Source: Dehalococcoidia bacterium
Lineage (GTDB): Bacteria; Chloroflexota; Dehalococcoidia; Lucifugimonadales; UBA1127
DNA: 64,000 nt
Direction: 5' to 3'
Assembly: GCA_965116355.1 (NCBI GenBank)
Contig: OZ220679.1
Location: 23,819 to 87,818, forward strand
Shown here: in pieces, positions 15,908-37,666 of the stretch
Layout of the letters: each line of letters starts with the position of its first letter
Position numbering within the stretch: position 1 is the first letter of the stretch
Made by a program: the position numbers and the translations under genes
The notes under the pieces: model-generated
Database searches by the model: none
What the model was told of the DNA's origin: nothing
The model's input: only the letters and a program-made list of their open reading frames with translations

Positions 15908-17353
15908 ATGTCTATTGCGTGCGTGCTGATAACCCACCTGCGGGCCAAGGTGGAGCTGCGCCGACGGCCCGACCTGGCGGAAGTGCCGGCCGTCATCGTT
16001 GACCGGTCCGGGCACAGACCTGTGGTGGTCGACCGCTTTCCCGCCGCCGATCGCGTACCCCTGGGCGTGCCGGTGGAGGAGGCGTTGTCGCTGCACGCCG
16101 GAGCGGTGGTGATCGAGGCGGACGAGCCCGCCTACCGCGCCGCCTTCCAGCGGGTGCTCGCGGCCCTGCAGGGCGTCAGCGACCGGGTCGAGGAGACGGA
16201 GCTGGGCACGGCCTACGTGGGGCTGGACGGCCTGCAGGATATGTACGGCGGCGAGGCCCGGCTGGTGAGCGCGCTGCTCAGCGCAGCGCCCGGCGATCTG
16301 GCGCCCCGGCTCGGCGTGGCCGGTGGCAAGTTCCCCGCCTTCGTCGCCGCATCCTGCAGCGCACCGATGGGCGCGACCAGGGTCCCGCAGGACGCGGCGG
16401 CCTTCCTGTCGCCCCACCCCGTCAGCCTCCTCCCCGTCGCCGCCGAGACACGGGCGGCGCTGGCTCGCTTCGGCCTTCGCACCCTGGGGGACGTGGCGGC
16501 GATGGCGCGGGAAACACTCGTCGACCAGTTCGGCGCGGAGGGCGGGCTGGCGTGGGACCTGGCGCGCGGGGTGGACGACAGCCCACTGCGTCCGCTGCGG
16601 CATGAAGAGGTAGTGGAGGAGCGGACGGCGCTCCCCGTGGAGGCGTCGTCGCTGGAGCTGCTGGTGACGGCCGTCGACGCCTTGCTGCGGCGGGCGTATG
16701 CGCGGCCCCGGATGCGGGGCCGGTATGCCAGTCGGGTTGCCCTTGCGTGCTCCCTGGCCGACGCGCCGCCGTGGGAGCGGGTCTTCCACTTCAAAAGCGG
16801 CGTGGGGGACTGGCGGCAGGCCTCCAGCCTCCTCCGTCCCCGGCTGGAGGCGGACCATCCGCTGTCGCCCGTGGAGGAGGCCGTGCTGACCCTCGGCGGC
16901 CTTACCGGAGACATCGGCGTGCAGGGAGGCCTCCTGCCCGACCTGCGGGCGGACCGCGAGGGCCGACTGGCGGAGGCGGAACGGCGGTTGCAGCCCCACA
17001 TGGGCGGCGGCCGGGCCCTCTACCGGGTGGCGGCGGTGGCCCCGGACCACCCCGCGCCGGAGCTGCGGTCGGTGCAGGTCCCCATCGACCCCGGCGGGCG
17101 CAACGCCCTGAAGCCCCTGGGCGTCCCCGTTGCAGTGGCGGTGCGCGAGGACCCGGCCCGGATACCTACGGCGGTGGAGGTCGGCGGCCGCTGGCAGCGG
17201 GTGGCCGGCATCGACGACCAGTGGACCTTCGACCTCTGGTGGATGCCCCAGCCGATGGAGCGGGACTACTACCGCGTGAGCGGCGAGGACGGCCGCCAGA
17301 TCACCCTGTTCCGGGACCGGCACGGCGATTGCTGGTACCGGCAGAACGCCTAG
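15908..17353 (+). CDS. imuB: ImuB-like Y-family DNA polymerase paralogue
   Basis: The N-terminus MSIACVLITHL... is followed by a Y-family-like core, and the gene sits directly upstream of dnaE2. The ATG at 15908 has GAGGGG 5 nt upstream. The ORF track starts at TTG 15896. Confidence 0.75.
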   Translation: MSIACVLITHLRAKVELRRRPDLAEVPAVIVDRSGHRPVVVDRFPAADRVPLGVPVEEALSLHAGAVVIEADEPAYRAAFQRVLAALQGVSDRVEETELGTAYVGLDGLQDMYGGEARLVSALLSAAPGDLAPRLGVAGGKFPAFVAASCSAPMGATRVPQDAAAFLSPHPVSLLPVAAETRAALARFGLRTLGDVAAMARETLVDQFGAEGGLAWDLARGVDDSPLRPLRHEEVVEERTALPVEASSLELLVTAVDALLRRAYARPRMRGRYASRVALACSLADAPPWERVFHFKSGVGDWRQASSLLRPRLEADHPLSPVEEAVLTLGGLTGDIGVQGGLLPDLRADREGRLAEAERRLQPHMGGGRALYRVAAVAPDHPAPELRSVQVPIDPGGRNALKPLGVPVAVAVREDPARIPTAVEVGGRWQRVAGIDDQWTFDLWWMPQPMERDYYRVSGEDGRQITLFRDRHGDCWYRQNA

Positions 17354-17367
17354 CCGAGGGTTGCGCC

Positions 17368-20300
17368 GTGACGGACAACTACGCCGAGCTGCACGCCAAG
17401 AGCTTCTACTCCTTCGGCCTGGGCGCGTCCCACGTCCACGAGCTGCTGGCGCAGGCGGCGGAGCACGGCGCCCCGGCCCTGGCCCTCACGGACACCAACC
17501 TGTGCGGCGCGCTGGAGTTCGCTCGGCTGGCCGGCAGCCTCGGCGTGCGGCCCATCACCGGCGGGGAGCTGACCCTGGCCGACGGCGCGCGGATCGTGCT
17601 GCTGGCGAAGACGCGCGCGGGCTACGCCAACCTCTCGCGCCTCTTCACCCTCGCCAACGGCGTCGACCGCCGCGAACCCCGGCTGGACCCGGCCCACCTG
17701 CCCGACTACGCCGAGGGGCTTGTCCTGCTCACCGGCGGGCGCGACGGCCCGGTGTCGCGTCTAGCGACGGCAGGCCGGTTCGACGCGGCCCGCGCGCTGC
17801 TGCGCGACTACGCATCGTGGTTCGGATCTGCTGGTGTGTACGTGGAGCTGCACCAGAACTTCCTGCACGGGGACACGCTGCGCAACCGGCTGCTGACGAC
17901 GCTCGCGCGCGAGACCCGTCTGCGCATCGTGGCCACCAACGACGTCCACTACCACGCGCCGGAGCGGGCGCGGCTCCAGCACGCGCTGGTGGCGGCGCGG
18001 CTCAACACCACGCTCGACCGCGCCCTGCCTCACCTCCGCCCGAACCACCACCTCCACCTGAAGGACGCTGCCTCGATGTCCCAGCTCTTCTATGAACGGC
18101 CGGACGCCGTCGCAAACAGCCTGCGGATCGCGGAGCAGTGCGCTTTCGACCTGGCCACGGGGCTGGGCTACACCCTGCCGCACCCTGCCGTACCGGAGGG
18201 GCACACGCCGGAGAGCTACCTGCGCCGCCTCTGCGACGAGGCCGCCATGCGCCGCTACGGCTCGGTCCCGCCGCAGGTGGAGGAGCGCCTGGACGAGGAG
18301 TTCCGGCTGTTCCGCCGGCACGGGCTGGCGGGCTTCCTTCTGCTGTACCGGGAGATCGGGCTGCTGGCCCAGCGCATCATGGAGGAGCGCGGGCTGGCCC
18401 ACCCGGAGACGCCGCTGGAGGAGCGGCCGCCGGGCCGGGGGCGGGGGTCGTCCGTCGCCTTACTCACCGGCTACCTCATCGGCATCAGCCACGTGGACCC
18501 GCTGCGGTGGGGTCTCACCCTGGAGCGGTTCATCCCCGAGGACATGACCATGCTGCCGGACATCGACCTCGACTTCCCCCGCACGCTGCGCGACGAGCTC
18601 ATCGGGCGAGTCCACCGGCACTTCGGGCCGGAGTACGCGGTGCTCGCCGGGGCCATCGCCACCTACTCGGTGAAGGGCATCGTGCAGGACCTTGGGAAGG
18701 CGCTGGGGCTGCCGAAAGACGACCTGCGCCTCCTCTCCAAGCAGCTCGGCTCCCACGACGCCTGTGACCTGCGGGGCGAGATGCTGGCGCTGCCCGCCTT
18801 CCGCGAGCGGGTGGACGCTCCGGGCTGGCGCGACCTGCTGGCGCTGGGGCCGCAGCTCATGGACGCCCCGCGAATCCTCGGCCAACACGTCGGCGGCATG
18901 GTCCTCAGCGACGCGCCCATCCCCGCCATGACGCCCGTGCGGGCCGGGGCCACCGACGACCGCTACATCATGGACTGGAACAAGGACAGCGTGGCCGACG
19001 CGGGGTTCGCCAAGATCGACCTGCTCTCGCTGCCGGTGCTGGACCAGATCGAGGAGGCGCTGGACCTCATCGAGGCGCGGGAGGGTCTCCGTCCGGACAT
19101 CAGCCGGATCGACCCGGAGGACCCGGCGGTGTACGACATGATCAACGCGGGCCGCTCCAAGGGCGTCTTCCTGCTCCAGTCGCCGGCGCAGCTGAAGATG
19201 GGGCAACGGCTGCGCTCCCGGTGCCTGCTCGATCTCGCCTATCAGGTGGCCCTCATCCGGCCCGGCGTCGGCGTGCAGGGCAGCGCGGTGTCCCAGTTCG
19301 TCGAGCGGTACCGCCACGGGGCGACGTGGGACTACGACCACCCGCTGGAGGAGCGGGCGCTGGAGCGCGGCTACGGCATCATCGTGTGGCAGGAGCAGGT
19401 GGTGCAGCTCCTCATGGACGTGGCGGGGATGACGGCGGCCCAGGCCGACGAGGTGCGCCGCGCCTTCGCCAGGCCCAACGGCGCGCACCTGATCGCCATG
19501 CACCGGCGGCGCTTCCTGGAGGGCGCGCGGCGCAACGGCGTGCCGGAGGACGTGGCGGATCGGATCTTCGGCAAGGTGAACGGTCACTACATGTTCCCGG
19601 AATCCCACTCCCACGCCTTCGCCGTCACCGCGTACCAGGCGTCGTGGCTGAAGCGCCACCACCCGCTGGCGTTCTTCGTCAGCCTGATGAACAACCAGCC
19701 GATGGGCTTCTACCCGGTGGAGACGCTGAAGGAGGACGCCCGGCGTTTCGGCGTGCCCTTCCGCAACCCGTGCGTGAACCGCAGCGGCGAGCGGTGCAGG
19801 CCGGAGGACGGCGCCGTGCTGCTGGGGCTGGCCTTGATCAAGGACGTGGGCGAGACCTCGGCCCGGACCATCGTGGAGGAGCGGGAGCGGCACGGCCCCT
19901 ATACGGAGCCTGCCGACCTGGTGCGGCGCACGGGGCTGAAGCCGCAGGCGGTGCAGTCGCTGGCGCTGGCCGGGGCCTTCGACGCCCTGGTCCCCAACCG
20001 CCGCGAGGCCCTGTGGCAGGCGGGCCTCGCCACGCGCCCCAACGGGCGGGGCCGCCGCGCCTTTCCCGTCTCGACCGACGACCGCGTTCCCCCGCTGGCG
20101 GACTTCTCCCCCTTCGAGCGCATGGCCGGCGAGTACCGGGTCATGGGCGTCTATCCGAAGGGCCACCTGATGGAGTTCGTGCGGCCCACGCTCGACAGGG
20201 ACGTGCTCCCCACGTCGGCGGTGGAGTCGCTCCCGGACGGTGCGGAGGTCCGCGTGGCGGGCTGGCCGGTGGCGCGGCAGCACCCGCGCGGGCGGGAGGG

Positions 20301-20514
20301 GACGGTGTTCGTGACGGTGGAGGACGAGACCGGGGACGTGCAGCTCATCGTCTGGCCCCACGTCTTCGCCCGCAGCGGGCGGACCCTGGGCAGCCGGGTG
20401 ATCCTCGCGTCGGGCGTGGTCTCGCGCTACGACGGCACCGCCAACATCATCGTCTCGGACGCGCGGCCCGTGCGGACGGGCGTCGCCATGCCGCCTGCCC
20501 ACGACTGGCGATAG
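17368..20514 (+). CDS. dnaE2: Error-prone DNA polymerase III alpha-type subunit DnaE2
   Basis: PHP N-terminus YAELHAKSFYSFGLGASHVHELL...ALALTDTNLCG, a Pol III alpha core, and an OB-fold C-terminus. The GTG start at 17368 has GAGGG upstream. The 16747 start in the track adds Arg/Gly/Pro junk that overlaps imuB. Confidence 0.9.
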   Translation: MTDNYAELHAKSFYSFGLGASHVHELLAQAAEHGAPALALTDTNLCGALEFARLAGSLGVRPITGGELTLADGARIVLLAKTRAGYANLSRLFTLANGVDRREPRLDPAHLPDYAEGLVLLTGGRDGPVSRLATAGRFDAARALLRDYASWFGSAGVYVELHQNFLHGDTLRNRLLTTLARETRLRIVATNDVHYHAPERARLQHALVAARLNTTLDRALPHLRPNHHLHLKDAASMSQLFYERPDAVANSLRIAEQCAFDLATGLGYTLPHPAVPEGHTPESYLRRLCDEAAMRRYGSVPPQVEERLDEEFRLFRRHGLAGFLLLYREIGLLAQRIMEERGLAHPETPLEERPPGRGRGSSVALLTGYLIGISHVDPLRWGLTLERFIPEDMTMLPDIDLDFPRTLRDELIGRVHRHFGPEYAVLAGAIATYSVKGIVQDLGKALGLPKDDLRLLSKQLGSHDACDLRGEMLALPAFRERVDAPGWRDLLALGPQLMDAPRILGQHVGGMVLSDAPIPAMTPVRAGATDDRYIMDWNKDSVADAGFAKIDLLSLPVLDQIEEALDLIEAREGLRPDISRIDPEDPAVYDMINAGRSKGVFLLQSPAQLKMGQRLRSRCLLDLAYQVALIRPGVGVQGSAVSQFVERYRHGATWDYDHPLEERALERGYGIIVWQEQVVQLLMDVAGMTAAQADEVRRAFARPNGAHLIAMHRRRFLEGARRNGVPEDVADRIFGKVNGHYMFPESHSHAFAVTAYQASWLKRHHPLAFFVSLMNNQPMGFYPVETLKEDARRFGVPFRNPCVNRSGERCRPEDGAVLLGLALIKDVGETSARTIVEERERHGPYTEPADLVRRTGLKPQAVQSLALAGAFDALVPNRREALWQAGLATRPNGRGRRAFPVSTDDRVPPLADFSPFERMAGEYRVMGVYPKGHLMEFVRPTLDRDVLPTSAVESLPDGAEVRVAGWPVARQHPRGREGTVFVTVEDETGDVQLIVWPHVFARSGRTLGSRVILASGVVSRYDGTANIIVSDARPVRTGVAMPPAHDWR

Positions 20515-20564
20515 TCTGAGCAGCGATAGCTTCCGCTTGCCCTCCTCGCTACAATGAGTGTGCT

Positions 20565-21194
20565 ATGTGCGGACGATACAGCCTGATAGCAGACTTGGGG
20601 GATCTGGCGCGGCGCTTCGAGTTCGACGGCGACTGGGACGCCTTCGACAAGCGGCACAACATCGCCCCCACGCAGGGTGTGCTCACGGTGCGTGGCAGCG
20701 CGCCCCGGCACGCCGAGATCATGCGCTGGGGGCTGGTGCCGTCGTGGGCCAAGGACCTCAAGGTGGGCAATCGAATGTTCAACGCGCGCGGCGAGACGGT
20801 GGCCGAGCGCCCCGCATTCCGCACTGCCCTGCGCCGTCGCCGCTGCCTCGTGCTGGCGGACGGCTTCTACGAGTGGCAGAAGGTCGCCGGCGGCAAGCGC
20901 CCGATGCGCATCACGCTCAAGTCCGGCGAGCCGTTTGCCTTCGCGGGGCTGTGGGAGACGTGGCGCGACCCCTCCGGCGTAATCATCCCTTCCTGCACCA
21001 TCATCACCACCTCGCCCAACGAGCTCATGGCCCCCATACACGACCGCATGCCCGTTATCCTGCCCCGCGAGCTGGAGGACCTCTGGCTTGACACGGAGCT
21101 GCAGGACGCGGCGTTGCTTACTGACCTGCTCGTCCCCTACCCGGCGGAGGCGATGGGAGCGGAGGAGGCGACTTTGCTGGGTGCGGGGCGCTAG
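20565..21194 (+). CDS. SOS-response-associated peptidase (SRAP / YedK / HMCES family) abasic-site processing protein
   Basis: N-terminal MCGRY (Cys2 nucleophile) and ...HNIAPTQ...MRWGLVPSWAKD...FNARGET... A TACAAT box sits at 20550-20555. Confidence 0.9.
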   Translation: MCGRYSLIADLGDLARRFEFDGDWDAFDKRHNIAPTQGVLTVRGSAPRHAEIMRWGLVPSWAKDLKVGNRMFNARGETVAERPAFRTALRRRRCLVLADGFYEWQKVAGGKRPMRITLKSGEPFAFAGLWETWRDPSGVIIPSCTIITTSPNELMAPIHDRMPVILPRELEDLWLDTELQDAALLTDLLVPYPAEAMGAEEATLLGAGR

Positions 21195-21505
21195 GGGAGT
21201 TGGGAGTTTCAGACTCTCACTGGTGGAGTTGGCGTGGACACATGCAGCACTTAGCTTGGCGACTCGAGAGCTTCCGCCCAAGAATGCCTAGAATACTCGT
21301 GGGTTCGGAGTTAGTGCCTCAGCAAAGTTGACGGTCAGGAACTATAGCTGCCACGGTCGGTTTCGAGCGGACACTCCTTCCGCCAAACTCGGCGCTGAGC
21401 TAGGGAGCGTTCGAATGAAATGGCGTGGCCAGTTTGAAATCAGGCTCAAGCAGTTGGCCGATATGTGGTAACGCGACTATATCGCTTGAGTCTAGTTTGG
21501 TGGCG

Positions 21506-21991
21506 TCAAACGTTCAATTGCCGGAGCCGAAGTGCCAATCCGTGCCCGGGAACCAGACACCTCAGATCGTTGTGCATTGCTTCGAGCATCGCCATGACCT
21601 GGGGTGTCGATAGACTGCCGGCATCCAGCATGCTGTTGACGACCCACAGCGCATCGCGATGAGCAATCCCTTGGATTGCGCGACGCTGCGCATGGTCCTG
21701 TCCTCCGTCAGCAGGGGCCATCCTATTGCGAGAGCGAATGAATCCACCAAGTTCAGCGCCGGTCGCTCGGACTGGTTGGCGATGGCCGTTCCCAAGTCTT
21801 CGGCATCCATAGACTCCACCCTAAGTCCAAAGTCGAGGAGGTCCTGTCCGATGTACGCACTGAGGTCTATCGGCTCCTCGTGAAGGTCAGGCACCGCAAC
21901 CCGAAGCTAGAGATGGAACATCCTATCCAGCACCCCTCGCTTTGAGGACTCGATCAGGATGGAGCTGTCGCTGACGAGGACCCTGATCCAT
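21506..21991 (-). pseudogene. Decayed PIN-like (DUF4411/DUF3368-type) toxin gene downstream of the XRE-ImmA gene
   Basis: The PIN-like N-terminus (I)RVLVSDSSILIESSKRGVLDRMFHL is followed by an in-frame TAG (21907-21909). It continues as LRVAVPDLHEEP...LVDSFALAIGWPLLTEDRTMRSVAQSKGLLIA. A frameshift near 21670-21690 leads into ...HRDALWVVNSMLDAGSLSTPQVMAMLEAMHND. The only nearby ATG (21989-21991) is out of frame. Confidence 0.65.
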
Positions 21992-23048
21992 ACCCCTGTG
22001 CCACCGACCCAGCCATGATGGCTTCGATATCGCCGACTCTCAGTCTGAGCAACTCTGCAGCCTTTGATTCCGAAATCTCATTTTCTGCTAGAGCTCTTAA
22101 ACACAGGCGGCGAAAGCGCGTGGGGATCTCCTCTCGTTCGAGAGGACATGGTTCATCGGTCCTCCAGCTGCTTCCAATGCCGCTGAATATGTCCTCATAC
22201 GTGTATTGGGTGATGATGCCCAGTTCACGCATTCGGACCACCAGAGATGCGGCGCTGATGCCGAACATCAGCTTGATCTCGACAAGTTCAGCGAAGCCGA
22301 AGTTCAGTCGTCGCCGTCCCACTTCACGCACTAGTTCCTCCTCGGGTGCAAGGAAGGCGCCGGCAAAGCGATTGCAGGCTTTCTCTTCCTGGACATCCGA
22401 TGGGATGCGCAGAAGCAGGTGTCCCAATTCGTGGGCGATGGTGAACCGCTGGCGTTCGAGAGACTTGGTCGTGGAGCAGACTACGACGGGGACGTCGGCT
22501 CCACCCAACCTGCGGACGCGAGAACTCAGGCCATCCACCGATCCAGGCAAGCTGAACTTGAACACCTTGATGCCCCGCTCCTCTAACAAAGCGGTGATGT
22601 CCGGTATAGGCCCACGACCAAGATTCCACGCGACCCGAATGGAAGCGGCTGCCCACTCCGTATCTTCGACAGTGGTGATTTGGTAGGGCGCTCCGTCCGG
22701 CTCCTCCAGCCCTGCGGTGTCGATCCCCAGGACCTCTTCCACCTGCAGATAGCGGTCAACGTGATCGAGGACCTTTCCCTCCACTGCCGCTCGGTCTCGG
22801 GCCCTGGTGGAGGCCAGCTTCCTGAACTCTACCGACTCCAGGGAGACCGTTGACGGGCTCAAGAGGTGACTCAAGGGCACATCCAGGGTTTCGGCCAGGG
22901 CAATGGCCACGGCTGAGCTCGGCACCATCTCTCCTCGTTCGTACTTGCCGATTGCCTGAGCCGACACAATGCCTCCCATGACTGCGGACAAGGACCGCAG
23001 CGACAAGCCGCTGCGCTTTCTGGCGAGCTTGAGACGTTCGCTTAACAT
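21954..23048 (-). CDS. Fused XRE-family HTH / ImmA-IrrE (COG2856) zinc-metallopeptidase regulator
   Basis: HTH LKLARKRSGLSLRSLSAVMGGIVSAQAIGKYERGEMVPS and the HEXXH motif FTIAHELGHLLL. The SD AAGGAGG sits 5 nt upstream of the ATG at 23048. Confidence 0.85.
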   Translation of the reverse strand: MLSERLKLARKRSGLSLRSLSAVMGGIVSAQAIGKYERGEMVPSSAVAIALAETLDVPLSHLLSPSTVSLESVEFRKLASTRARDRAAVEGKVLDHVDRYLQVEEVLGIDTAGLEEPDGAPYQITTVEDTEWAAASIRVAWNLGRGPIPDITALLEERGIKVFKFSLPGSVDGLSSRVRRLGGADVPVVVCSTTKSLERQRFTIAHELGHLLLRIPSDVQEEKACNRFAGAFLAPEEELVREVGRRRLNFGFAELVEIKLMFGISAASLVVRMRELGIITQYTYEDIFSGIGSSWRTDEPCPLEREEIPTRFRRLCLRALAENEISESKAAELLRLRVGDIEAIMAGSVAQGYGSGSSSATAPS

Positions 23049-23062
23049 GGACCCCTCCTTTC

Positions 23063-23101
23063 GGTTTACATCTTTTGGTACAATGAGCTAGATTGTAAAC
23101 C
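23063..23101. promoter_or_regulatory. Candidate operator: 8-bp perfect inverted repeat GGTTTACA-N23-TGTAAACC containing TACAAT boxes on both strands
   Basis: The arms are at 23063-23070 and 23094-23101. TACAAT is at 23079-23084 (+) and 23097-23092 (-). The site lies in the divergent region between the XRE-ImmA gene and the six-gene operon. Confidence 0.5.
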
Positions 23102-23297
23102 AGGGTGCAAGGGGTGTGGAGACCAGATCCTTCCGGGTTGGCACCCCTGGCGCGGCAGGACAATAGACGAGTCAATGGAGGAGGAACTGACAGGATGACC
23201 CGCGGCCGTACAACCACCGCACGTTCGATGAGCGCGGGGACAGCGCTGTCATCGGCATCGACGGATTCCCCGAACGCCGCCTCGGAGGTGCGTCGAC

Positions 23298-24806
23298 ATG
23301 TCTGAGCGGACCACCAAAGGGCGCCTTATCGTCTTCGAGGGGCCGGACGGCGTCGGCAAGTCGACACTTTCTCTTGCCCTCGCCGATAGGCTCAGGGCAA
23401 TGGGTCTTCCCTGCCAGCACCTGTCCTTTCCGGGGAAGGATGCAGGAACCGTTGGCCGCCTGGTCTATGGCGTCCACCACGACCCAATACGGTACGGCAT
23501 ACAGGAGATCACAGCCGCAAGCCTGCAGGCCCTTCACATCGCCGCACATCTGGATGCGATTGAGCGGCGTATCCTTCCGGACCTCAATGAAGGTCGTTGG
23601 GTCATTCTCGATCGCTTCTGGTGGTCCACCTGGGTCTATGGGCGTGCCGCAGGGATCGACAGGACGACTTTGGACGCCTTGATCCAGGTGGAGCGTCTCC
23701 ACTGGAATGGTGTTCAGCCCGATGCCGTCTTCCTGATAGATCGGTCCAACGACTTCTTCGACAGTGACAACCGGTTGCAACTCCGGGAAGGCTATGAGGT
23801 CCTCTGCGGAGACGAGAAGACCCGGTACCCGGTCCATCAGGTCCAGAACGACAAGTCGGTCGACGAGTCCATGAATCGCGTGCTTGAAGCGCTTCGAGGC
23901 CTTCTTCCCGACGCTGTGGGCAGGAACGCGCCGGCTGAGGACAACTCTACCCCGGCACAGACCGGGCAGTTGCCTCTACTGTCGCATGACGGGAGAACCC
24001 CGTCGGTCGCCACTGAGCTGAGAGGCGCCCGCCCAACAGTTGTCTACGGCAGCTACTGGAGGTTCGCGGCAGAACGGCAGGAGATCTTCTTCCGCAAACT
24101 GGAAGGATGCCCCGCTCCGTGGACGGACGACCCCATCATCGCCAGGCACAAGTTCACCAATGCCTACAGGGCATCGGACCGCGTAAGCCAGTTCCTCATC
24201 AGGCATGTCATTTACGAGGGTGAACAGAGTCCGGAGGAGGTGTTCTTTCGTACAATCCTCTTCAAGCTCTTCAACAAGGTCGAAACGTGGGAGATGCTAC
24301 AGGGTCAGCTATCGGAGATATCCTACGCCGACTACTCCTTCGAGAGATACGACCAGGCGCTCACCGAGGCCCAGGCTTCCGGCGCAAGAATCTACTCGGG
24401 GGCATACATGATGCCGTCGGGGAGGAGCTCTTTTGGCCATACCCAGAAGCATCGCAACCACCTCTTGTTGCTGGAACGGATGATGGGGGATGAGGTGCCA
24501 CAAAGGATCGCCAGCGCACCAAGCATGGAACAGGCCTTCCAGATTCTCAGGTCGTACCCGACCATAGGCGATTTCCTGGCTTACCAGTTCGTGACGGACC
24601 TCAACTACAGCACTCTCACCGATTTCTCCGAGATGGAGTTCGTAGTTCCGGGACCTGGCGCGCTGGATGGCATCCGCAAGTGCTTCAGCGACCTTGGCGT
24701 CCTGACCGAGGCGGACGCCATCAAGGCCGTCACGGAGATACAGGAGCAGGAGTTCGAGAGACTTGGCTTGAGGTTCCGGTCCTTGGGAGGGCGGCCCTTC
24801 AACTGA
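23298..24806 (+). CDS. Thymidylate-kinase-like P-loop kinase fused to a large helical C-terminal domain (architecture of 5-hmdU-DNA-kinase / DNA-hypermodification kinases). Probably frameshifted near the 3' end, with the reading frame continuing to 24994
   Basis: Walker A FEGPDGVGKST and Tmk-like DRFWWSTWVYG. The C-terminal domain has YWRFAAERQEIFFRKLEG..PWTDDPIIARHKFTNAYRASDRVSQFLIRHV. The -1 frame after about 24795 encodes LIDCQNLFCEVSKYARVKHPDIRGV...YWYPPKWG and ends in an ATGA overlap with the next gene. Confidence 0.65.
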   Translation: MSERTTKGRLIVFEGPDGVGKSTLSLALADRLRAMGLPCQHLSFPGKDAGTVGRLVYGVHHDPIRYGIQEITAASLQALHIAAHLDAIERRILPDLNEGRWVILDRFWWSTWVYGRAAGIDRTTLDALIQVERLHWNGVQPDAVFLIDRSNDFFDSDNRLQLREGYEVLCGDEKTRYPVHQVQNDKSVDESMNRVLEALRGLLPDAVGRNAPAEDNSTPAQTGQLPLLSHDGRTPSVATELRGARPTVVYGSYWRFAAERQEIFFRKLEGCPAPWTDDPIIARHKFTNAYRASDRVSQFLIRHVIYEGEQSPEEVFFRTILFKLFNKVETWEMLQGQLSEISYADYSFERYDQALTEAQASGARIYSGAYMMPSGRSSFGHTQKHRNHLLLLERMMGDEVPQRIASAPSMEQAFQILRSYPTIGDFLAYQFVTDLNYSTLTDFSEMEFVVPGPGALDGIRKCFSDLGVLTEADAIKAVTEIQEQEFERLGLRFRSLGGRPFN

Positions 24807-24990
24807 TCGACTGCCAGAATCTATTCTGCGAGGTGTCCAAGTATGCCCGGGTGAAGCATCCAGATATCCGTGGGGTGAGCGACCGCAAGCGCATCAAGCA
24901 GTTCTACCTTCCTTCTGGAACGCCCATCGCTTACTGGTACCCTCCGAAGTGGGGCATCAATAACCTGATTCCTTCTCCAGGAGGGTCGAC

Positions 24991-26052
24991 ATGATTACGC
25001 TCTTTCAGGGTGCGACTGCCGATGAGGTCTGGCAGCAGGCGGCACAGGCGTTTCGACGGCGGGACGGAGTCGCCGTTCAAGATGGGAGAGGTGGGCCGAC
25101 ACGGGAAATCCTTCATGCTGCCATCTCGATAGCGGACCCACGGCAGCGCTGGGTGACGTCGAGACAGCCAGTATTGAACCCTGCCTTTGCTCTCGCCGAG
25201 GTCGTGTGGATCATGACTGGTCGCAATGACCTGGCATTCCTGGAATTCTGGAGTAGGGAGTACAGGAAATATGCTGGGGACGGGCTGGAGCTCCACGGGG
25301 CGTACGGGTATCGCATACGTAACCATCTCTCCATAGACCAGTTGGACCGGGCATTCCGAGCCCTATCGAACAACCCCGACACGAGACAGGTCGTCCTTCA
25401 GATCTGGGACTCCGAAGTCGACCTGCCCAACCCTGATGGGACGCCGGTAGATTACGACATCCCCTGTAACGTCATTTCGATGCCCAAGGTCCGCGACGGG
25501 AAGTTGGAGTGGCAACAGGTGATCCGTAGCAATGACGTGTTTCGTGGCCTTCCGTACAACCTCGTCCAGTTCACCAGCCTGCAGGAGATATTGGCCGGAT
25601 GGTTGAACGTCGAGTGTGGCACGTACAACCAGCTCAGCGACAGCCTGCATGTCTACGAGGGGGACACGGCTAACGTGCTAGCCTCTGGCCCTCCGCCAGA
25701 CGTCGCCCTCAACACCGACAGTCTGGCGCTTCCCAGGGATGAGTCAGACCAGGTGTTCAAGGAACTCGAATGGCGCGTCGAGAAGCTGATCGACCCAGAC
25801 CTAGCGTCCGGGGCGCTAAGAGGAATGGCATCCTGGGATTCAGCCCCCGAAGCCTACCGGAACATCATGACGGTCCTTGCTGCCGAGACCCTTCGACGCC
25901 GGGGCGACACGGATTCGGCTGTCGAGGCCATGACCACCTGCACCAATCCTGCATACCGGCAACTCTGGGCGTGGTGGCTCGCCAGGACATCTGGAGGGAA
26001 GCATGGAGCCGGTTCACCCTCCGGCGCCGAGGTTGGACCGAGGAGCCGCTGA
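24991..26052 (+). CDS. Divergent thymidylate-synthase-fold enzyme (ThyA / pyrimidine hydroxymethylase family)
   Basis: NPAFALAEVVWIMTGRND, HGAYGYRIR, DQLDRAFRALSNNPDTRQVVLQIWD, catalytic-Cys context DIPCNV, RSNDVFRGLPYNLVQF and SDSLHVYEGD. It has a C-terminal extension of about 90 aa relative to canonical ThyA. Confidence 0.8.
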   Translation: MITLFQGATADEVWQQAAQAFRRRDGVAVQDGRGGPTREILHAAISIADPRQRWVTSRQPVLNPAFALAEVVWIMTGRNDLAFLEFWSREYRKYAGDGLELHGAYGYRIRNHLSIDQLDRAFRALSNNPDTRQVVLQIWDSEVDLPNPDGTPVDYDIPCNVISMPKVRDGKLEWQQVIRSNDVFRGLPYNLVQFTSLQEILAGWLNVECGTYNQLSDSLHVYEGDTANVLASGPPPDVALNTDSLALPRDESDQVFKELEWRVEKLIDPDLASGALRGMASWDSAPEAYRNIMTVLAAETLRRRGDTDSAVEAMTTCTNPAYRQLWAWWLARTSGGKHGAGSPSGAEVGPRSR

Positions 26053-26066
26053 GGGGAGACTGCGCC

Positions 26067-26564
26067 ATGAACCAACGGATCAGGATCACCGAGTTGTTCG
26101 CCAGATTCCAGCTGGAGAAGGTGAAGCTGGGCCCCAGCTGGGCCAGCGCCGAGATCGCAATTGACGCCAGTGACAGCGACGCAGCCTGGGAACTCTACGT
26201 CGAGATGCTGACTAGGGTGGTCACCCAGCCCCTCCCGGTTGAGACGGGGGACGAGGAGACTGCCCTCGACAGCGTCTACTCGCTATTCCCCATCACCCGG
26301 GAGGTCCTGCGTCGACGCGGTAGGCGGGCCATCAACTTCACGAAGATAGCCGTCCCCATCCTGAACCAGATCGTCCGGCCCTTTACGGCAAAGTGGCACG
26401 GCAAGCGCTTGGCCGGAGAGCTGGCAGACGAGGTCATACGCAATGAGTTCAGGGACGAGCTGGCGGCCTTGCAAGAGGACCTGCGCAACTACAATCGCAT
26501 GCTAGCGCGCATAGCCGGCGTGGAAGACCTCACGGACCTGGAGAAGGACACGGGGGCGGAATGA
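26067..26564 (+). CDS. Hypothetical helical protein (165 aa), operon member
   Basis: The ATG at 26067 lies 15 nt after the previous stop. Its stop overlaps the next start (ATGATG at 26561). No family was recognised. The ORF-track start at 25770 overlaps the upstream gene and is rejected. Confidence 0.65.
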   Translation: MNQRIRITELFARFQLEKVKLGPSWASAEIAIDASDSDAAWELYVEMLTRVVTQPLPVETGDEETALDSVYSLFPITREVLRRRGRRAINFTKIAVPILNQIVRPFTAKWHGKRLAGELADEVIRNEFRDELAALQEDLRNYNRMLARIAGVEDLTDLEKDTGAE

Positions 26565-27127
26565 TGCCGAGAAGACGCCGACACAATGTGTTCGTCAGCT
26601 ACCACCATGACCAGGACCAGCGGGACAGGGAGAGATTTGTTCACATGATGGGCGACAACATCGTTGACCGGTCAGTGAACATTGGCGACATACCCGGTCC
26701 CAACCCTCCCACCGAAGCCACACTTCAGCGGATTCGGGAAGAGTTCATTGCCCAAGTGTCTGTTACGGTTGTACTGGTAGGGCGGTGCACCTGGCAGCGA
26801 AAGTTCGTTGACTGGGAGATTGGGGCCTCTCTCAGGGATACTAGGTCGAATCCTCGATGCGGGCTCCTGGGCATCCTTCTCCCCTGTCATCCGGACTACG
26901 GGAGTACCACCTATCACAGCCAGCTGATTCCGCCGAGATTGGCGGACAACTGCGACGGGGTCGACCCATTCGCATCAATCCGCGACTGGTCGGATGACCC
27001 GGATGAGGTGCGAGGCTGGATTCACGGCGCATTTCTAAGGCGAAAGCGACAACCCGACCCGGACAACGGCCGTCTGCCATTCGGGAGAAACTGGAACGGC
27101 AACTGCGCGGCGGGTTGGCAGCAATAG
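26561..27127 (+). CDS. TIR-like domain protein (DUF1863 / ThsB-like)
   Basis: HNVFVSYHHDQDQRDRERF...IVDRSVNIGDI...IREEFIAQVSVTVVLVGRCTWQRKFVDWEIGASL...GLLGILLP. Confidence 0.75.
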   Translation: MMPRRRRHNVFVSYHHDQDQRDRERFVHMMGDNIVDRSVNIGDIPGPNPPTEATLQRIREEFIAQVSVTVVLVGRCTWQRKFVDWEIGASLRDTRSNPRCGLLGILLPCHPDYGSTTYHSQLIPPRLADNCDGVDPFASIRDWSDDPDEVRGWIHGAFLRRKRQPDPDNGRLPFGRNWNGNCAAGWQQ

Positions 27128-27177
27128 GTCGTTCTTACACTGCGGTATGAAAGGAAGAGAGAAAGGGGGTAGGTGAC

Positions 27178-27654
27178 ATGGCCGACGATATACGCAATGT
27201 CTTCATCAGTCACATTCACGAGGACGATGAGGGCATCGACAACATCAAGAGGCTTGCCGAAAAGCATGGGATGACGGTCCGAAACGGCTCGGTCACTTCG
27301 GACAGACCCAACTCAGCAACCAACGAGGACTACATCAAGCACCAGATTCTGGCGCCGCGCATCAGATGGTCCAGCGTGCTCGTCGTGTACATTTCGCCAG
27401 AGACCAAACACAGTTGGTGGGTGAATTGGGAAATCGAGTACGCCCACAGCCAGGGCAAGAGGGTGGTCGGCGTGTGGGAATGGGGAGCGAAGGAGTGCGA
27501 AGTACCGGAAGCGCTCACGCGCCATGGTGATGCCGTCGTCGGGTGGAACGGAGAGAGCATCGTCGATGCCATCAACGGCGATTCCGACGAGTGGCGACAG
27601 CCGGATGGGTCTGACTGGGACTACCGTCCCATCAAGCGCTATGCCTGCCGGTAG
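27178..27654 (+). CDS. TIR-domain protein (second, distinct TIR-like paralogue)
   Basis: NVFISHIHEDDEGIDNIKRLAEKHGMTV...SSVLVVYISPETKHSWWVNWEIEYAHSQGKRVVGV. The SD AGGGGG lies upstream of the ATG. Confidence 0.75.
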   Translation: MADDIRNVFISHIHEDDEGIDNIKRLAEKHGMTVRNGSVTSDRPNSATNEDYIKHQILAPRIRWSSVLVVYISPETKHSWWVNWEIEYAHSQGKRVVGVWEWGAKECEVPEALTRHGDAVVGWNGESIVDAINGDSDEWRQPDGSDWDYRPIKRYACR

Positions 27655-27660
27655 TTCGCC

Positions 27661-28260
27661 ATGCACGCCAGGCTGTACTCATACATTGTGGCCAGGGACT
27701 ACGGATTCGCTCCGAATCCGTTCTTCGGGTTTTGCACCCTGGCGACGTGCAAGCCGCAGATACGCAAGAAGGCCGAGGTGGGAGACTGGATCATAGGCAC
27801 CGGCTCAAAGTCCAAAGGCATGGACGGACGCCTTGTCTACGCCATGAGGGTCACCGAAGCCATGTCCTTCGACGAATACTGGGCCGACAGCCGCTTCCAC
27901 CGCAAGCGTCCTGACATGCACGCCAGCATGAAGAAGGCCTTCGGGGATAACATCTACCACCGTGACAACGGCACTGGCCCATGGCGGCAACTGGATTCAC
28001 ACCACAGCCATGAAGACGGGACGCAGAACGATAGGAACGTCCGGAACGACACACAGGTCAACCGCATGCTCGTCAGCGATGATTTCATCTACTGGGGAGG
28101 TAGTGGTCCATTACTACCTGATTTTCGCGGGGAGACCGTTTGCCACAGCACACAGGGGCATAGATGCAGTTTCTCTAGCGACGTGGTTGAGGGCTTCGTT
28201 GCCTGGCTCCGTGGCTTGAACGACGTTGGCTACTGTGGGAACCCCTTAGAATGGCATTAA
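27661..28260 (+). CDS. Nmad2-like (nucleotide-modification-associated domain 2) protein; family call tentative
   Basis: The N-terminus LYSYIVARDYGFAPNPFFGFCTLATCKPQIRKKAEVGDWIIGTGS matches my memory of the Nmad2 signature. The gene starts 7 nt after the previous stop. Confidence 0.6.
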   Translation: MHARLYSYIVARDYGFAPNPFFGFCTLATCKPQIRKKAEVGDWIIGTGSKSKGMDGRLVYAMRVTEAMSFDEYWADSRFHRKRPDMHASMKKAFGDNIYHRDNGTGPWRQLDSHHSHEDGTQNDRNVRNDTQVNRMLVSDDFIYWGGSGPLLPDFRGETVCHSTQGHRCSFSSDVVEGFVAWLRGLNDVGYCGNPLEWH

Positions 28261-28724
28261 GCGTTCGGTTGCATCCCTCTTCGGCTCTTGATACTAACCC
28301 CTTACTTGGTGACGACCGGGCGCATTCCGCTTACGCAGCGGGGAGACTTTTGGGAGCTGGACTCCCTTAGCACCCTCGCCATTCAGTAATGTCTTTGCAG
28401 TCGGGTCATCCAGCACCCTCGAGATCTCCACTCACCAGTCACCGCCCAAACACACCAAAGGGAGTCTACTGTAGGCAGTCACCCAGTCCGCCAAAAGCAG
28501 CGATTGCGGCAATGCAGTGTCCGGCCGAATTGGTTCACGGCTGGTTCGGATTCGGAATCGCATATTCTCCAGTGTACAATGACGCGACCTTATTGGAGCT
28601 CGACTCTCGTATGGTAGAACACCACAATCCTAAGAAACTGGCTTGTCGACCCCGGATCAATTGTGGAATCAGGACCAGTACAATCGATGGTCAAACCTCG
28701 ACATCACAAACGCTAAGGAGAAGA

Positions 28725-29606
28725 ATGACCTTTGAATACCAGGGAGCTGATAGACAGATCTACAGTGAACCGGCAGCGGTCACGAATCCTTGCCACATTG
28801 CCGAAGATGATGGTCTTCGCTCCCGTCACATGAGGCGTTTAATCCAAGACTTGGTCTCGACCGAGGCCTGTCCTACTACACAGACAATCCCGAAGGTTGT
28901 CATTCAGTTCTGGCACGATTCCAACAATATACCTGCAGATGTCCAAGAGTGCATTGACAGCTGGAAATCGCTTGAAAGTCGAGGTGTCAAACGGGTTTTC
29001 TTTGATGACCATCAGGCGAGAAGATTCATAACCAATAGCTTCGATCTTCATCATGTAGCGGCGTTTGACCGGTGTCGTCACCCGGCGATGCGGTGTGACT
29101 ATTTTCGCCTATGCTACTTAGCTAGGCACGGTGGCTTTTACGTAGACGCCGACGAGTTTTACCAGGGAGAGGACTGCGACCCTTTGTTTGCGGATAATCG
29201 CCTAAAGATCCAGCCTTTGTGCTACGACATCCCATCAGCAGCAATGGTTCCCTACGACGTGTTCACAAGAGAAAACAGCGAATCTACGAACTGGATCTTC
29301 TATGCAAACAACAATCCGCTTGTCGCGCCGGCTTCTCATCCTGTCATCCGATTGGCCCTTCGTCGGTCGACTCGAATTCTCTTGAAGGATGAAAGCAAAC
29401 GACTCGACATACAGTCAACAACTGGACCAGGTAACTTCACCGCTAGTTTAGTTAGACACGCAATCGTTACCGAGCTTTCCGGCCAGGTTCGAGACTTTTC
29501 ATTCATAGCCAACTGGGAAGCTATTTCGATCAGCCGATGGCCGCTAAGCTATCGAAGTGATGAGCGGAATTGGAGGCTATGGAACCGTGCACAGAGGCCT
29601 ATGTAG
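28725..29606 (+). CDS. DXD-motif glycosyltransferase (Gly_transf_sug / OCH1-like, COG3774)
   Basis: VVIQFWHDSNNIPADVQECIDSWKS...RHPAMRCDYFRLCYLARHGGFYVDADEF. The preferred start is the ATG at 28725, with AAGGAG 5 nt upstream. GC is markedly lower. Confidence 0.75.
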   Translation: MTFEYQGADRQIYSEPAAVTNPCHIAEDDGLRSRHMRRLIQDLVSTEACPTTQTIPKVVIQFWHDSNNIPADVQECIDSWKSLESRGVKRVFFDDHQARRFITNSFDLHHVAAFDRCRHPAMRCDYFRLCYLARHGGFYVDADEFYQGEDCDPLFADNRLKIQPLCYDIPSAAMVPYDVFTRENSESTNWIFYANNNPLVAPASHPVIRLALRRSTRILLKDESKRLDIQSTTGPGNFTASLVRHAIVTELSGQVRDFSFIANWEAISISRWPLSYRSDERNWRLWNRAQRPM

Positions 29607-29708
29607 CAGTGTCAGGCGAACCCTGCAACCGTGTACAACGTTGGCGTCCACCTTATACCTAGTGCCCTCCTACTGGCGCCAAGCTGATGGAAGGAACTTT
29701 TACTCCTG

Positions 29709-31928
29709 ATGAATGCGGAAAAACCATCTCGATTCCTTCGGCGGGTGTGGTTTTGGGCGATGCTAGGTGCTAGGTATCTGGAGACCAACACCATTACTAG
29801 GTCGTTTGGCAATGAGAGAACGGGCGATCTCATTCAACGAATCTACGTGATCAATCTGGATCGGCAGCCCAATCGCTGGCGACAGATGAGCCAAGAGCTT
29901 AGCAGGCTACGCGACCGATCAGGAGGCTCCTTGGCCAAGCTGAGCAGGCGCTTTTCTGCTGTAGACGCAAGATACCTGTACGAGCCAAATGGTGGAGACC
30001 AAATAGAGTCAACCTATCGTTTGTCTGATCAACTCTTCGTTCAGCCGGAGCCGCGGCTGGACCACGTAGTAGATGCGCAAGCCCAAGACATCGAAATGAC
30101 ACCTCAAGAGGTGGCAGTCGCCCTTTCACACATTGAGGTTTGGAAGACAATAGCCGCAAATGAGCCGCGGTACACCCTAGTGTTGGAGGATGACATCTAC
30201 TTCCGAAGGGGATTCGCCAGAGTCTTCGACGCCACATGGGCTGACCTTAGCCAGTGGAATGGGCAGGGTATCGATGTCGACATGGTCTATCTGTCGTATG
30301 AAAGAGCTCTCAAGGAGATACCGGGAAGCCCAGTCTCTAAACTGCTGTTCAGACCAACGACCGGTCTCTGGCAACTCTCCGGTTACATACTGTCTAAGGA
30401 TGGTGCAGCAAATCTTCTCCGGCTACTACCGGTGCGGGGACCAGTAGATCTCTGGCTCAATCATCAGTTCAGGAGACTCAATGTTCTAGCCACCCGGCGT
30501 CCAATAGTCGTGCAGAGACCGGATGTACCGTCCACAAACTCTTACTCCGTACTGCCCATCCTTTCCCGAGTCGGGGTAATCACCCGAGAAAAGCCACTGC
30601 TGGTCAAAAGTATGTCACTGCGCGGGCCTGTCTTTGCTTTCGGCCAGAGTGGCTCGGGCTTAGCGTCACTCGCAATGGCACTCTCAATGCTGGGTTATAG
30701 GTGCTGCAGCGACGTTACGGCGCTGCCGACTCGTGAACATGCCGAACTATTCGGGAACGGGCGCAAGCGAGTGTTTGACGCCTATGTGAATATCGGCTCA
30801 CTAGATTCGCGCTTGCTTTCCAAACTGGCGAAGACCTACCCCAAGGCGCGATTCATCGCGACTGTGAGAGGAGATGGGCCGCCAAATGGTTCAATTGGAG
30901 AATTTCAGACCGGAGGTTCCGCACATCCTGCAGCTAGTGAACATTGGACAGACAGCAACTTGATCCGGCTCTCCGAAGAGATATCCAACAACCTCCTAGT
31001 GCTTCCATCCCTGCACCGTGACAAATGGGAATTGCTTAGGGGTTTCTTGGGATGCGAGTACCCTGCCCATGCATATCCCAATCGCGAAGACGTAATGCAA
31101 CGTCCACTCGTAGCCGAATCAGGTGATCGTCAAAATGGCTGGAGATCGCAAGTGAGGAATCTCAAAAGAGACTCGTCTCCGTGGATTGTCCCCGGGACAG
31201 ATTGGCCCGGCCTGGCACTCGCCGAAGTTAACGAGACAGTGCCTCTTGATTCTCTAGGCAACGGCCTAGTCGATGATTCCAGAGACTCGGAAAACCGAAC
31301 CTGGGTGCTACGCGACGACACCTTTCCGAGTAATCTTGCACTATTCACGCCCGACAACTTCACGATCAACAAGTGCGGCGTTGGACAGCTCACACTGCGC
31401 CAGGAGAATGCTTCCGTAAGGCAATTCACATCCGCATCAATTGCAAGTGGGCAGCGCTATCTTTACGGACGATTTGTTGCGGACCTAAGGCCATCGAACA
31501 CTCCAGGTGCGATAACAGGAATGTTCTTGCATCGCAATTCGCCTCGTCAGGAAATTGATCTTGAGTTCTTAGGCAAGGACACTACGAGCTTGCTCGTGAA
31601 TGTGTATTACAACCCCGGCGTCGAGGGGACAAAGCTGGAATATGGCTACCGAGGGACGCCTACACTCATTGAACTGGGCTTCGACGCAGCGTCGGAATTC
31701 CATCGATATGAAATTGAATGGTGTGCAGACTATATCGTATGGAGAGTCGACGGACGCCTTGTATGCAAGCGGAACATGTGGGACCCTACTCCCATCCCAC
31801 ATCTACCAATGCAGTTCAACGTGAACCTCTGGCCCTCAAGGTCCATAAGGCTGGCCGGGAGGTTGGCTACCGGTGACCTGCCTACCCAGAGTTATATTAG
31901 AAACATTGATGTACAGTCAGTCTCTTGA
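29709..31928 (+). CDS. Multidomain protein: N-terminal GT25-family glycosyltransferase, unassigned central region, C-terminal GH16 (laminarinase/ConA-like) domain
   Basis: GT25: IYVINLDRQPNRWRQM...FSAVDARYL...ALSHIEVWKTIAANEPRYTLVLEDDIYF. GH16: GAITGMFLHRNSPRQEIDLEFLGKDT...HRYEIEWCADYIVWRVDG, with the catalytic ExDxE motif as EIDLE. Confidence 0.75.
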   Translation: MNAEKPSRFLRRVWFWAMLGARYLETNTITRSFGNERTGDLIQRIYVINLDRQPNRWRQMSQELSRLRDRSGGSLAKLSRRFSAVDARYLYEPNGGDQIESTYRLSDQLFVQPEPRLDHVVDAQAQDIEMTPQEVAVALSHIEVWKTIAANEPRYTLVLEDDIYFRRGFARVFDATWADLSQWNGQGIDVDMVYLSYERALKEIPGSPVSKLLFRPTTGLWQLSGYILSKDGAANLLRLLPVRGPVDLWLNHQFRRLNVLATRRPIVVQRPDVPSTNSYSVLPILSRVGVITREKPLLVKSMSLRGPVFAFGQSGSGLASLAMALSMLGYRCCSDVTALPTREHAELFGNGRKRVFDAYVNIGSLDSRLLSKLAKTYPKARFIATVRGDGPPNGSIGEFQTGGSAHPAASEHWTDSNLIRLSEEISNNLLVLPSLHRDKWELLRGFLGCEYPAHAYPNREDVMQRPLVAESGDRQNGWRSQVRNLKRDSSPWIVPGTDWPGLALAEVNETVPLDSLGNGLVDDSRDSENRTWVLRDDTFPSNLALFTPDNFTINKCGVGQLTLRQENASVRQFTSASIASGQRYLYGRFVADLRPSNTPGAITGMFLHRNSPRQEIDLEFLGKDTTSLLVNVYYNPGVEGTKLEYGYRGTPTLIELGFDAASEFHRYEIEWCADYIVWRVDGRLVCKRNMWDPTPIPHLPMQFNVNLWPSRSIRLAGRLATGDLPTQSYIRNIDVQSVS

Positions 31929-36699: not shown

Positions 36700-36743
36700 G
36701 TCCTAGACTCCCGTCCATAAAGCCCCGAAGACTCAACTGAAGC

Positions 36744-37622: not shown

Positions 37623-37666
37623 GGCGGGATATCGGTTCCTTTTGATGAATTGAGAAAGGTGACTAA

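Follow-up and report, generated by a model that had tools for sequence, protein, structure and literature searches.

The question addressed here is what is encoded by a six-gene operon found at positions 23298-28260 of a 64-kb stretch of Dehalococcoidia DNA (contig OZ220679.1; the whole stretch is called the window below), in which enzymes of thymidine nucleotide metabolism are followed by two TIR proteins and an Nmad2 protein. On balance, the locus is best read as one representative of the DS-4 family of anti-phage systems, in the form of a horizontally mobile cassette made of three stacked modules for which functions are proposed below.

The open reading frame (ORF) listing of the window shows six closely spaced ORFs, A to F, all on the + strand. 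Gene A (23298-24806, with a continuation in a second frame to 24994) codes for a Tmk-like kinase fused to an HMUDK_hel domain and is frameshifted. It is followed by gene B (24991-26052) for an enzyme of the thymidylate synthase (TS) fold, a predicted dUMP 5-hydroxymethylase, and by gene C (26067-26564) for a 165-aa helical-bundle protein that belongs to no known family and is a partner of TIR proteins. Genes D (26561-27127) and E (27178-27654) encode ThsB-type TIR proteins, with Glu86 and Glu85 and with C and Nmad2 as their respective partners, and gene F (27661-28260) encodes Nmad2 itself. C and D overlap in an ATGA at 26561-26564, and a second ATGA overlap, between A and B at 24991-24994, is present only after frame repair of A; the remaining intergenic gaps are 14 nt (B-C), 50 nt (D-E) and 6 nt (E-F). 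An earlier note, made from the letters of the sequence, had described six packed co-directional genes with both overlaps in DNA of lower GC than the flanking core, and this is borne out (GC 0.58-0.61 over the operon versus 0.71-0.75 at 16-21 kb); of its gaps of 15, 50 and 6 nt only the first was wrong, by one nucleotide. The domain calls that it made by eye were all confirmed by Pfam, C likewise giving no match, and all the motifs that it quoted are present, but the W-x-x-W-E-I element that it ascribed to both TIR proteins occurs in E, while D has F-V-D-W-E-I; the Glu is retained in both.

The same note knew of no described system joining these modules to a TIR pair. DS-4 (working name NTTI), from E. 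coli (NZ_QOYB01000018.1:32107-36002) and one of 42 hits in the DefensePredictor screen (DeWeirdt, Mahoney & Laub, Science 2026, PMC13092281; bioRxiv January 2025), combines such modules with one TIR protein, and of its five proteins all but the kinase have homologues here, namely B, A, E and F. The five DS-4 genes code for a thymidylate synthase, an 'adenylate kinase' (dNMP kinase), HMUDK_hel, a ThsB-type TIR protein and Nmad2 (PMC13092281). In a BLASTP comparison of the published DS-4 protein sequences with those of the window, Nmad2 aligned with F (50 % identity, 2e-50), the TIR protein with E (37 %, 4e-33) and also with D (31 %, 5e-8), HMUDK_hel with the C-terminal part of A (29 %, 1e-31) and the TS with B (26 %, 5e-15). 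Both TS-fold enzymes keep the catalytic Cys context and the Asn, and the DS-4 TIR protein matches end to end (9.5e-73) the PADLOC model PDLC00418, which is also matched by E. PADLOC-DB v2.0.0 contains no system corresponding to the locus: the only matches were to ThsB (D and E) and RmrA, with weak ones to PDC-M50B and PDC-M51B, and C, F, B and all the non-TIR proteins of DS-4 had none.

Both loci thus combine a TS-fold enzyme, a P-loop nucleotide kinase, HMUDK_hel, a ThsB TIR protein of the same subfamily and Nmad2 in one co-directional operon. They differ in gene order, which is TS-kinase-HEL in DS-4 and kinase+HEL fusion followed by TS in the window, and DS-4 has neither the C-D pair nor the XRE-M78/PIN pair described below; the identities span 26-50 %. 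The locus very probably belongs to the DS-4 family and, judged by these protein comparisons, is a distant and enlarged relative of DS-4, that is, a variant of a recently described kind and not a new system. DS-4 was active from a plasmid in E. coli MG1655, without prior modification of the genome being reported as needed; its phenotype in Table S7 concerns lambda only, with a -log efficiency of plating of 0.93 and smaller plaques (PMC13092281). A search for later mechanistic literature on DS-4 found none. An anti-phage role of the DS-4 family is probable.

The unit that moves between genomes is larger than the operon. Homology detected by blastn to nine further loci (L001-L009, four metagenome contigs and five Dehalococcoidia genomes) runs at 84-92 % identity from 21499 or 21549 to a stop between 28254 and 28302, the flanks being unrelated, and the identical order of eight genes is found in all nine. 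Since the nucleotide homology has such sharp borders, the mobile unit is taken to be a 6.8-kb cassette (21499-28302) composed of a PIN-like gene, an XRE-M78 regulator gene and the six-gene operon. Such recurrence is more than chance would give. Terminal repeats, tRNA genes and Rfam families were sought at the cassette borders and none was found.

The first module, A-B, carries the nucleotide enzymes. B matches Pfam Thymidylat_synt (7.7e-21), and its best solved relative is the CMP 5-hydroxymethylase MilA (2.2e-28), to which it aligns as far as residue 327, including the C-terminal helical extension; ordinary thymidylate synthases of solved structure reach 3e-13 at most. It is 41 % identical to gp51 of phage PaMx11 (1.3e-41). 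The parallels that the earlier note saw with MilA and with the hydroxymethyl-pyrimidine enzymes of phages are real. The active-site and specificity residues E70, R132, C159 (the nucleophile), S180, N190, H220 and Y222 are intact. CMP-using enzymes have Lys/Ala/Asp at the specificity positions (Lys133, Ala176 and Asp186 in MilA; PMC5175136), and these CMP-specific residues are absent from B, which at the three positions has Arg132/Ser180/Asn190, the deoxyribose- and uracil-using pattern in the scheme of that paper. Because these residues replace Lys/Ala/Asp, dUMP and not CMP is the expected substrate, and B is most likely a dUMP hydroxymethylase.

Residues 1 to about 150 of A match Pfam Thymidylate_kin (1.4e-15), and among solved structures those closest to this N-terminal domain are without exception thymidylate kinases (best 2e-8). 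The remainder matches HMUDK_hel (7.6e-98), the final 30 profile positions being found in the frame-shifted ORF. A Cys-Glu pair within the motif LFCEVSKY is invariant in 13 aligned HMUDK_hel proteins, including those of DS-4 and PaMx11 (gp50), and is soon followed by a shared Lys and Arg; in repaired A the pair is Cys511-Glu512 (window about 24826-24831). In the Pplase2 transferases, whose sequence is unrelated to HMUDK_hel, catalysis relies on an essential Cys and a neighbouring Glu, and since the invariant pair recalls these residues we suspect that HMUDK_hel has an enzymatic function and is more than a passive helical domain. The HMUDK_hel profile gave no meaningful match in the PDB, none to solved Pplase2 structures and no Pfam aGPT-Pplase match, and the 'aGPT-Pplase clade 1' labels attached to some phage records were not confirmed. 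HMUDK_hel matches 499 phage records, among them phages with hypermodified thymidine; the literature on phage thymidine hypermodification yielded no experiments on PaMx11 gp50.

The frame of A is broken by a 1-nt deletion at 24793-24797 (+), seen in alignment with L001, L005, L006 and L008. The base is lost after 24795, the window having GGCGGC-CC and the four relatives GGCGGCGCC, and with one G inserted A becomes a 565-aa protein, equal in length to its intact homologues. Programmed frameshifting was considered and rejected, as the frame is uninterrupted in the four relatives. The TS-like gene is split in two ORFs in L007, L009 and L041, which could mean repeated decay of the module or indel errors of long reads. 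Because these split genes hint at assembly indels, the deletion in A is possibly an artefact, and we put a real lesion and an artefact at roughly even odds.

The PIN/DUF3368-like gene at the other end of the cassette (21506-21894, -) is a pseudogene; its alignment to the intact 166-aa homologue of L001 shows a stop codon in frame, two in-frame deletions and one frameshift. Together with the deletion in A, which lies upstream of the invariant Cys-Glu pair, these lesions are what one would expect if the window copy were a decaying, non-functional remnant. That reading is rather improbable: genes B to F and the regulator gene are undamaged, their proteins being 86-96 % identical to those of the relatives, the lesion in A may be a sequencing error of the sort suggested by the split TS genes, and E-F and C-D could function without A.

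The modular build of the operon was apparent from a survey of 80 species-genome loci anchored on Nmad2, with labelled ORFs and neighbours counted within 8 kb. In 78 of them the gene immediately before Nmad2 encodes a TIR protein. The further company of this pair varies, and includes MazG with MazG_C (48 loci; Pfam MazG_C 5e-65), C (42), a D-type TIR (40), HMUDK_hel (35), a UDG-like gene (23), a dCTP-deaminase-like membrane protein (15) and a TS-like gene (11). Since 19 of the 80 loci carry TIR-Nmad2 without any nucleotide enzyme, such enzymes are not needed for the core to exist. A contiguous, DS-4-like row [kinase+HMUDK_hel]-TS-TIR-Nmad2 with no C-D pair in between is present in L025, L039 and L041. 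Nmad2 is also found fused to ThsB_TIR (P0312), TIR_2 (P0289), two TIRs (P0265), MazG+MazG_C (P0300) or NOV_C (P0257), as part of an HMUDK_hel-TIR-Nmad2 chimera (P0367), and beside a partial Macro-domain match (E 5.6e-4) in P0270. The operon is a stack of three two-gene modules, A-B, C-D and E-F. The six genes do not make up a single inseparable machine: C-D stands alone elsewhere, and E-F lacks the other genes in the 19 loci mentioned.

One arrangement met in the survey, TIR-Nmad2-MazG/MazG_C-UDG (about 23 of the 80 genomes), corresponds to the MazG/MazG-C/NMAD/UDG system of DefensePredictor (Fig. 6F, S12), which is predicted and unvalidated. It has the Nmad2 core in common with the window locus, where the TS/kinase/HMUDK_hel module takes the place of MazG and UDG.

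In the E-F core, E matches Pfam ThsB_TIR (2.6e-23) and, over its full length, the PADLOC ThsB model PDLC00418 (4.2e-66). In a set of 80 sequences, the segments NVFISHIHEDD and WVNWEIEYA (containing Glu85) and a C-terminal R.I.RY.C show conservation of 90 % or more. E and D resemble the TIR proteins of Thoeris in being members of the ThsB family with the conserved Glu (E85, E86), and Thoeris loci can hold several TIR genes. The difference lies in the partner, which for the window TIR is constantly Nmad2; no ThsA (SIR2/SLOG or Macro-TM) was detected by Pfam or PADLOC among the operon proteins and the neighbours scanned.

F matches Pfam Nmad2 (1.1e-72), and an AlphaFold2 model was obtained with pLDDT 82 and pTM 0.82. 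The AlphaFold and Foldseek check that the earlier note had proposed above all for C and F gave only sub-threshold, PUA-like matches in the PDB for F, to ASCH, YTH and EVE domains (best E 0.012, TM 0.35-0.44), and no sequence match of Nmad2 to solved structures was found with a single sequence or a profile. On this modelled fold we read Nmad2 as a putative PUA-like protein that senses a nucleotide or nucleic acid. Nothing relevant was found in the literature under the name Nmad2. The family is large, with 7069 homologues in a word-indexed search, 2648 cluster representatives at E<=0.001 among 1.84 billion proteins, and at least 555 places across 185,579 species genomes. It is essentially cellular and not viral: tblastn against 50,697 phage records gave no match, and 9 loci, with the same modules, were found among 2.9 million viral contigs.

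Of the C-D pair, C has no match in Pfam, PADLOC, NCBIfam or PHROG. It has 3739 homologues and was modelled by AlphaFold2 as a confident helical bundle (pLDDT 86.7); apart from generic helical bundles, nothing matched it in sequence or fold. D matches Pfam ThsB_TIR (2.8e-13) and, weakly, the PADLOC ThsB and PDC-M50B models. C adjoins a ThsB_TIR gene also outside Nmad2 loci, and in L095-L099 the C-D pair stands alone, in unrelated surroundings with no Nmad2 nearby, once directly after a Fic-domain gene. C and its ThsB_TIR partner may form an unnamed two-gene TIR system of their own.

One alternative is that independent systems do no more than share a transcript, with C-D as one, E-F as a minimal two-gene system and A-B as a captured phage cassette that has no functional link to either. 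The solitary C-D pairs, the 19 loci with E-F alone, and the habit of defence genes to stack in islands, with restriction-modification (R-M) operons hosting such inserts, fit this explanation. It is an unlikely one all the same, as HMUDK_hel and C are found at 8 kb or less from Nmad2 much more often than expected of unlinked genes (35 and 42 of 80 loci), the TS, kinase, HMUDK_hel, TIR and Nmad2 genes of DS-4 lie side by side in a host that is very distant, the P0300 fusion and the P0367 chimera join Nmad2 to nucleotide enzymes or HMUDK_hel in one protein, and the eight genes of the cassette travel as one sharp-bordered block.

The nearest described pathway to the A-B module is that of phage thymidine hypermodification, known from PaMx11 (gp46-51), M6, ViI and SP10 (PMC8989533, PMC13458397). 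The phage 5-hydroxymethyl-deoxyuridine (5-hmdU) route employs a dCMP deaminase, a dUMP hydroxymethylase, a dTTPase/dUTPase, a 5-hmdU DNA kinase (5-HMUDK) and Pplase2, and gp49 of PaMx11 is a validated 5-hmdU DNA kinase. The PaMx11 genes for gp49 (kinase), gp50 (HMUDK_hel) and gp51 (TS-like) have the same order as the corresponding parts of A-B, and the TS-like enzyme and HMUDK_hel of the window are homologous to their phage counterparts. The window locus differs in being cellular, in having a Tmk-like kinase and in the coupling to TIR and Nmad2. BLASTP with gp49 (5-HMUDK family) gave no match to A or to any ORF of 85 loci, and no homologue of gp46 (Pplase2/amino-acid:DNA transferase, AADT) turned up in these loci or in the window; the decorating enzymes of the phage pathway are absent from the locus. 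Taken over the relatives, the enzymes that surround TIR-Nmad2 mirror the phage route (deaminase, hydroxymethylase, dTTPase/dUTPase-like pyrophosphatase and kinase) without the Pplase2 step.

Because the accessory enzymes match the phage route minus Pplase2, a model is favoured in which a sensor/effector core is combined with corruption of nucleotides. The gene composition, the homology to DS-4, the synteny with phage genes, the modularity, the defence-island setting and the gene fusions are observed; we infer the catalytic steps of the model, its trigger and the order of events, and the mechanism is offered tentatively. B would most likely convert dUMP to 5-hydroxymethyl-dUMP, which the Tmk-like domain of A would most likely phosphorylate, HMUDK_hel then most likely acting on the 5-(phospho)oxymethyl group. 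E-F would be the core, with Nmad2 sensing a nucleotide or nucleic acid and the TIR protein serving as an NAD-cleaving effector or as a generator of a signal; C-D would be an optional extra TIR module, able to work alone. Infection would trigger the TIR-Nmad2 core, the nucleotide enzymes would then deplete or corrupt the thymidine nucleotide supply or put 5-hydroxymethyluracil (hmU) into newly made DNA, and phage replication would fail as the outcome. Among the three hypotheses of the earlier note, the first, corruption of the nucleotide pool or DNA with participation of the TIR proteins, is accordingly the best supported, the second, hypermodification of self DNA, stays open, and the third, an antimetabolite, is unlikely in view of the dUMP-type residues of B.

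Several observations weigh against this reading. We know of no NADase activity, signal molecule or trigger for the TIR subfamily of E. The PUA-like assignment of Nmad2 comes from weak Foldseek matches, and the many invariant polar residues of F, together with Cys25, Cys30, His114 and His115, would also fit an enzyme. Hydroxymethylation and methylation by B are not separable from its sequence. With A frameshifted upstream of the Cys-Glu pair, module A-B may be dead in the window genome, and the loci with a bare TIR-Nmad2 pair show a core in which the nucleotide enzymes have no part. The DS-4 kinase (WP_087900469.1) has no BLASTP similarity to the Tmk-like kinase of A, which by this comparison belongs to a separate P-loop family and would fill its place in an analogous role. 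Finally, the sole experimental support comes from the distant E. coli relative, is weak, and stems from a paper in which mechanism was out of scope (PMC13092281).

The main rival of the nucleotide-corruption model is marking of self DNA, in which the enzymes would place an hmU-derived base in host DNA, Nmad2 would read the mark, in DNA itself or in a mononucleotide set free when a phage degrades the chromosome, and the TIR protein would execute the response. Such a system would resemble modification-dependent discrimination of self from non-self or the PUA-Cal-HAD systems that sense m6-dAMP. It would account for the homology and synteny of A-B with DNA-hypermodification genes of phages whose products act in part on DNA, for the resemblance of the HMUDK_hel Cys-Glu to the essential Cys and Glu of the DNA-acting Pplase2 transferases, and for the UDG-like genes that accompany the core in 23 genomes; the weak fold matches of Nmad2 are all to readers of modified bases, and a PUA sensor of a methylome-derived dNMP is reported elsewhere. 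We nevertheless consider it quite improbable, as a Pplase2/AADT homologue occurs in 0 of 85 loci, TS-like genes are present in just 11 of 80, the operon has no nuclease, and plasmid-borne DS-4 worked in MG1655 with no report of a need for prior genome modification.

A pathway of the MilA/MilB or BcmA/BcmB type, in which a free modified base for an antimetabolite or nucleoside antibiotic would be produced by a hydroxymethylase together with an N-glycosidase of TIR fold, is suggested by the full-length resemblance of B to MilA, its best solved relative, and by remote HHpred matches of ThsB-type TIRs to nucleoside 2-deoxyribosyltransferase-like domains (DefensePredictor tables, PMC13092281). It is very improbable: B has the dUMP-type Arg132/Ser180/Asn190 in place of the Lys/Ala/Asp of CMP enzymes, the partner TIR is not a glycosidase of the MilB family, the locus is no antibiotic cluster, with tailoring, export and resistance genes all absent from it, and its surroundings are defence islands and R-M operons. 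That B and the kinase of A are ordinary housekeeping thyA and tmk, as their Pfam Thymidylat_synt and Thymidylate_kin matches might suggest, is scarcely credible, given scores far under the NCBIfam equivalog cut-offs (77 bits versus 174.55 for B, 54.6 versus 83.25 for the kinase part of A), the fusion of the kinase to HMUDK_hel, the low-GC mobile block and the phage and MilA hydroxymethylases as the nearest relatives of B.

The locus and its relatives place DS-4, a screen hit with a faint phenotype, in a much larger TIR-Nmad2 family with swappable modules. A speculative extension, which we rate as doubtful, is that TIR-Nmad2 could be the core of a large unrecognised modular defence family wired to exchangeable thymidine-nucleotide enzymes, by which hosts turn the phage hydroxymethyl-dU pathway on phages, the modified nucleotide either poisoning phage DNA synthesis or being the Nmad2 ligand that fires the TIR protein. 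Should hosts indeed employ a DNA-modification pathway of phages for attack or for warning, this would be a new type of nucleotide-based immunity. Leads to a mechanism are the ligand of Nmad2, the NADase status of the ThsB subfamily of E and catalysis by the HMUDK_hel Cys-Glu pair. The window copy is probably damaged and the experimental precedent weak. Homologous parts from uncultured Chloroflexota of high GC widen the range of sequences available for structural and biochemical studies.

The two remaining genes of the cassette are transcribed away from the operon. The first (21954-23048, -) encodes an XRE-family helix-turn-helix (HTH) protein with an M78 (ImmA/IrrE-type) peptidase domain (Pfam HTH_3 9.6e-12, Peptidase_M78 4.6e-12), in agreement with the divergent XRE-ImmA/IrrE regulator named in the earlier note. 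It matches PADLOC RmrA (2.5e-55) and, under the family cut-off, the NCBIfam spr1629 repressor/antitoxin (1.2e-23), and in the 80-genome survey it accompanies the operon in the closest relatives only. The PIN-like gene next to it is intact (166 aa) in nine relatives, and its homologues match PF01850 (faintly) and PF11848. As a pair (21506-23048, -) the two genes look RosmerTA-like or repressor/antitoxin-like: as in RosmerTA (RmrT/RmrA) and spr1629-type loci, an XRE-M78 protein matching RmrA is followed by a small toxin-like gene, here PIN. Unlike RosmerTA, the PIN-like partner has no match among PADLOC models, and it is a pseudogene in the window copy. The pair may regulate the operon instead of acting as a toxin-antitoxin. 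The divergent intergenic region (23049-23297) holds the only two promoter-like sites within 21.3-28.7 kb, at 23065-23094 (+) and 23120-23092 (-); they are suggestive only, their count not exceeding the shuffle expectation, and the promoter and terminator scan of the same interval gave no signal above chance.

The defence setting is seen both in the relatives and in the window. In nine of the 80 genomes (L011, L013, L015, L019, L020, L027, L043, L052 and L062) the cassette is inserted between hsdM and hsdS/hsdR, the TIR-Nmad2 inserts being with or without C, MazG and UDG-like genes. Genes of the hsd type lie near the cassette in 20 of 80, and Schlafen/AlbA_2 genes in 5 of 80. In L001, L002 and L004 (positions 1-3400) the cassette adjoins a ThiF/DUF6791/BubE set and a TIR_2-TPR-hydrolase protein, a defence-island-like neighbourhood. 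The window itself has, by profile scan, a type I R-M operon at 32450-41338 (-), consisting of hsdR (32450-35590), a DUF3644 gene (35587-36699), an AbiJ_NTD4-domain gene (36744-37622), hsdS (37667-39082) and hsdM (39761-41338), all on the - strand, so that the DUF3644 and AbiJ_NTD4 genes stand between hsdR and hsdS. This places the locus in a defence setting. GC drops to about 0.52 at 36-38 kb.

Just beyond the right border of the cassette, the lowest-GC stretch (0.52-0.54; 28389-31928, +) contains two sugar-related genes, one for a DXD glycosyltransferase-like protein and the other for a protein of 739 aa that has Glyco_transf_25 and GH16 domains and gives a weak match of the sulfotransferase-like type. 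Immediately to the left of the cassette lies high-GC core DNA (16747-21194, +), with a long ORF resembling a DnaE-like polymerase, identified by eye, and then a gene for an SOS-response-associated peptidase, SRAP (Pfam 1.1e-70).

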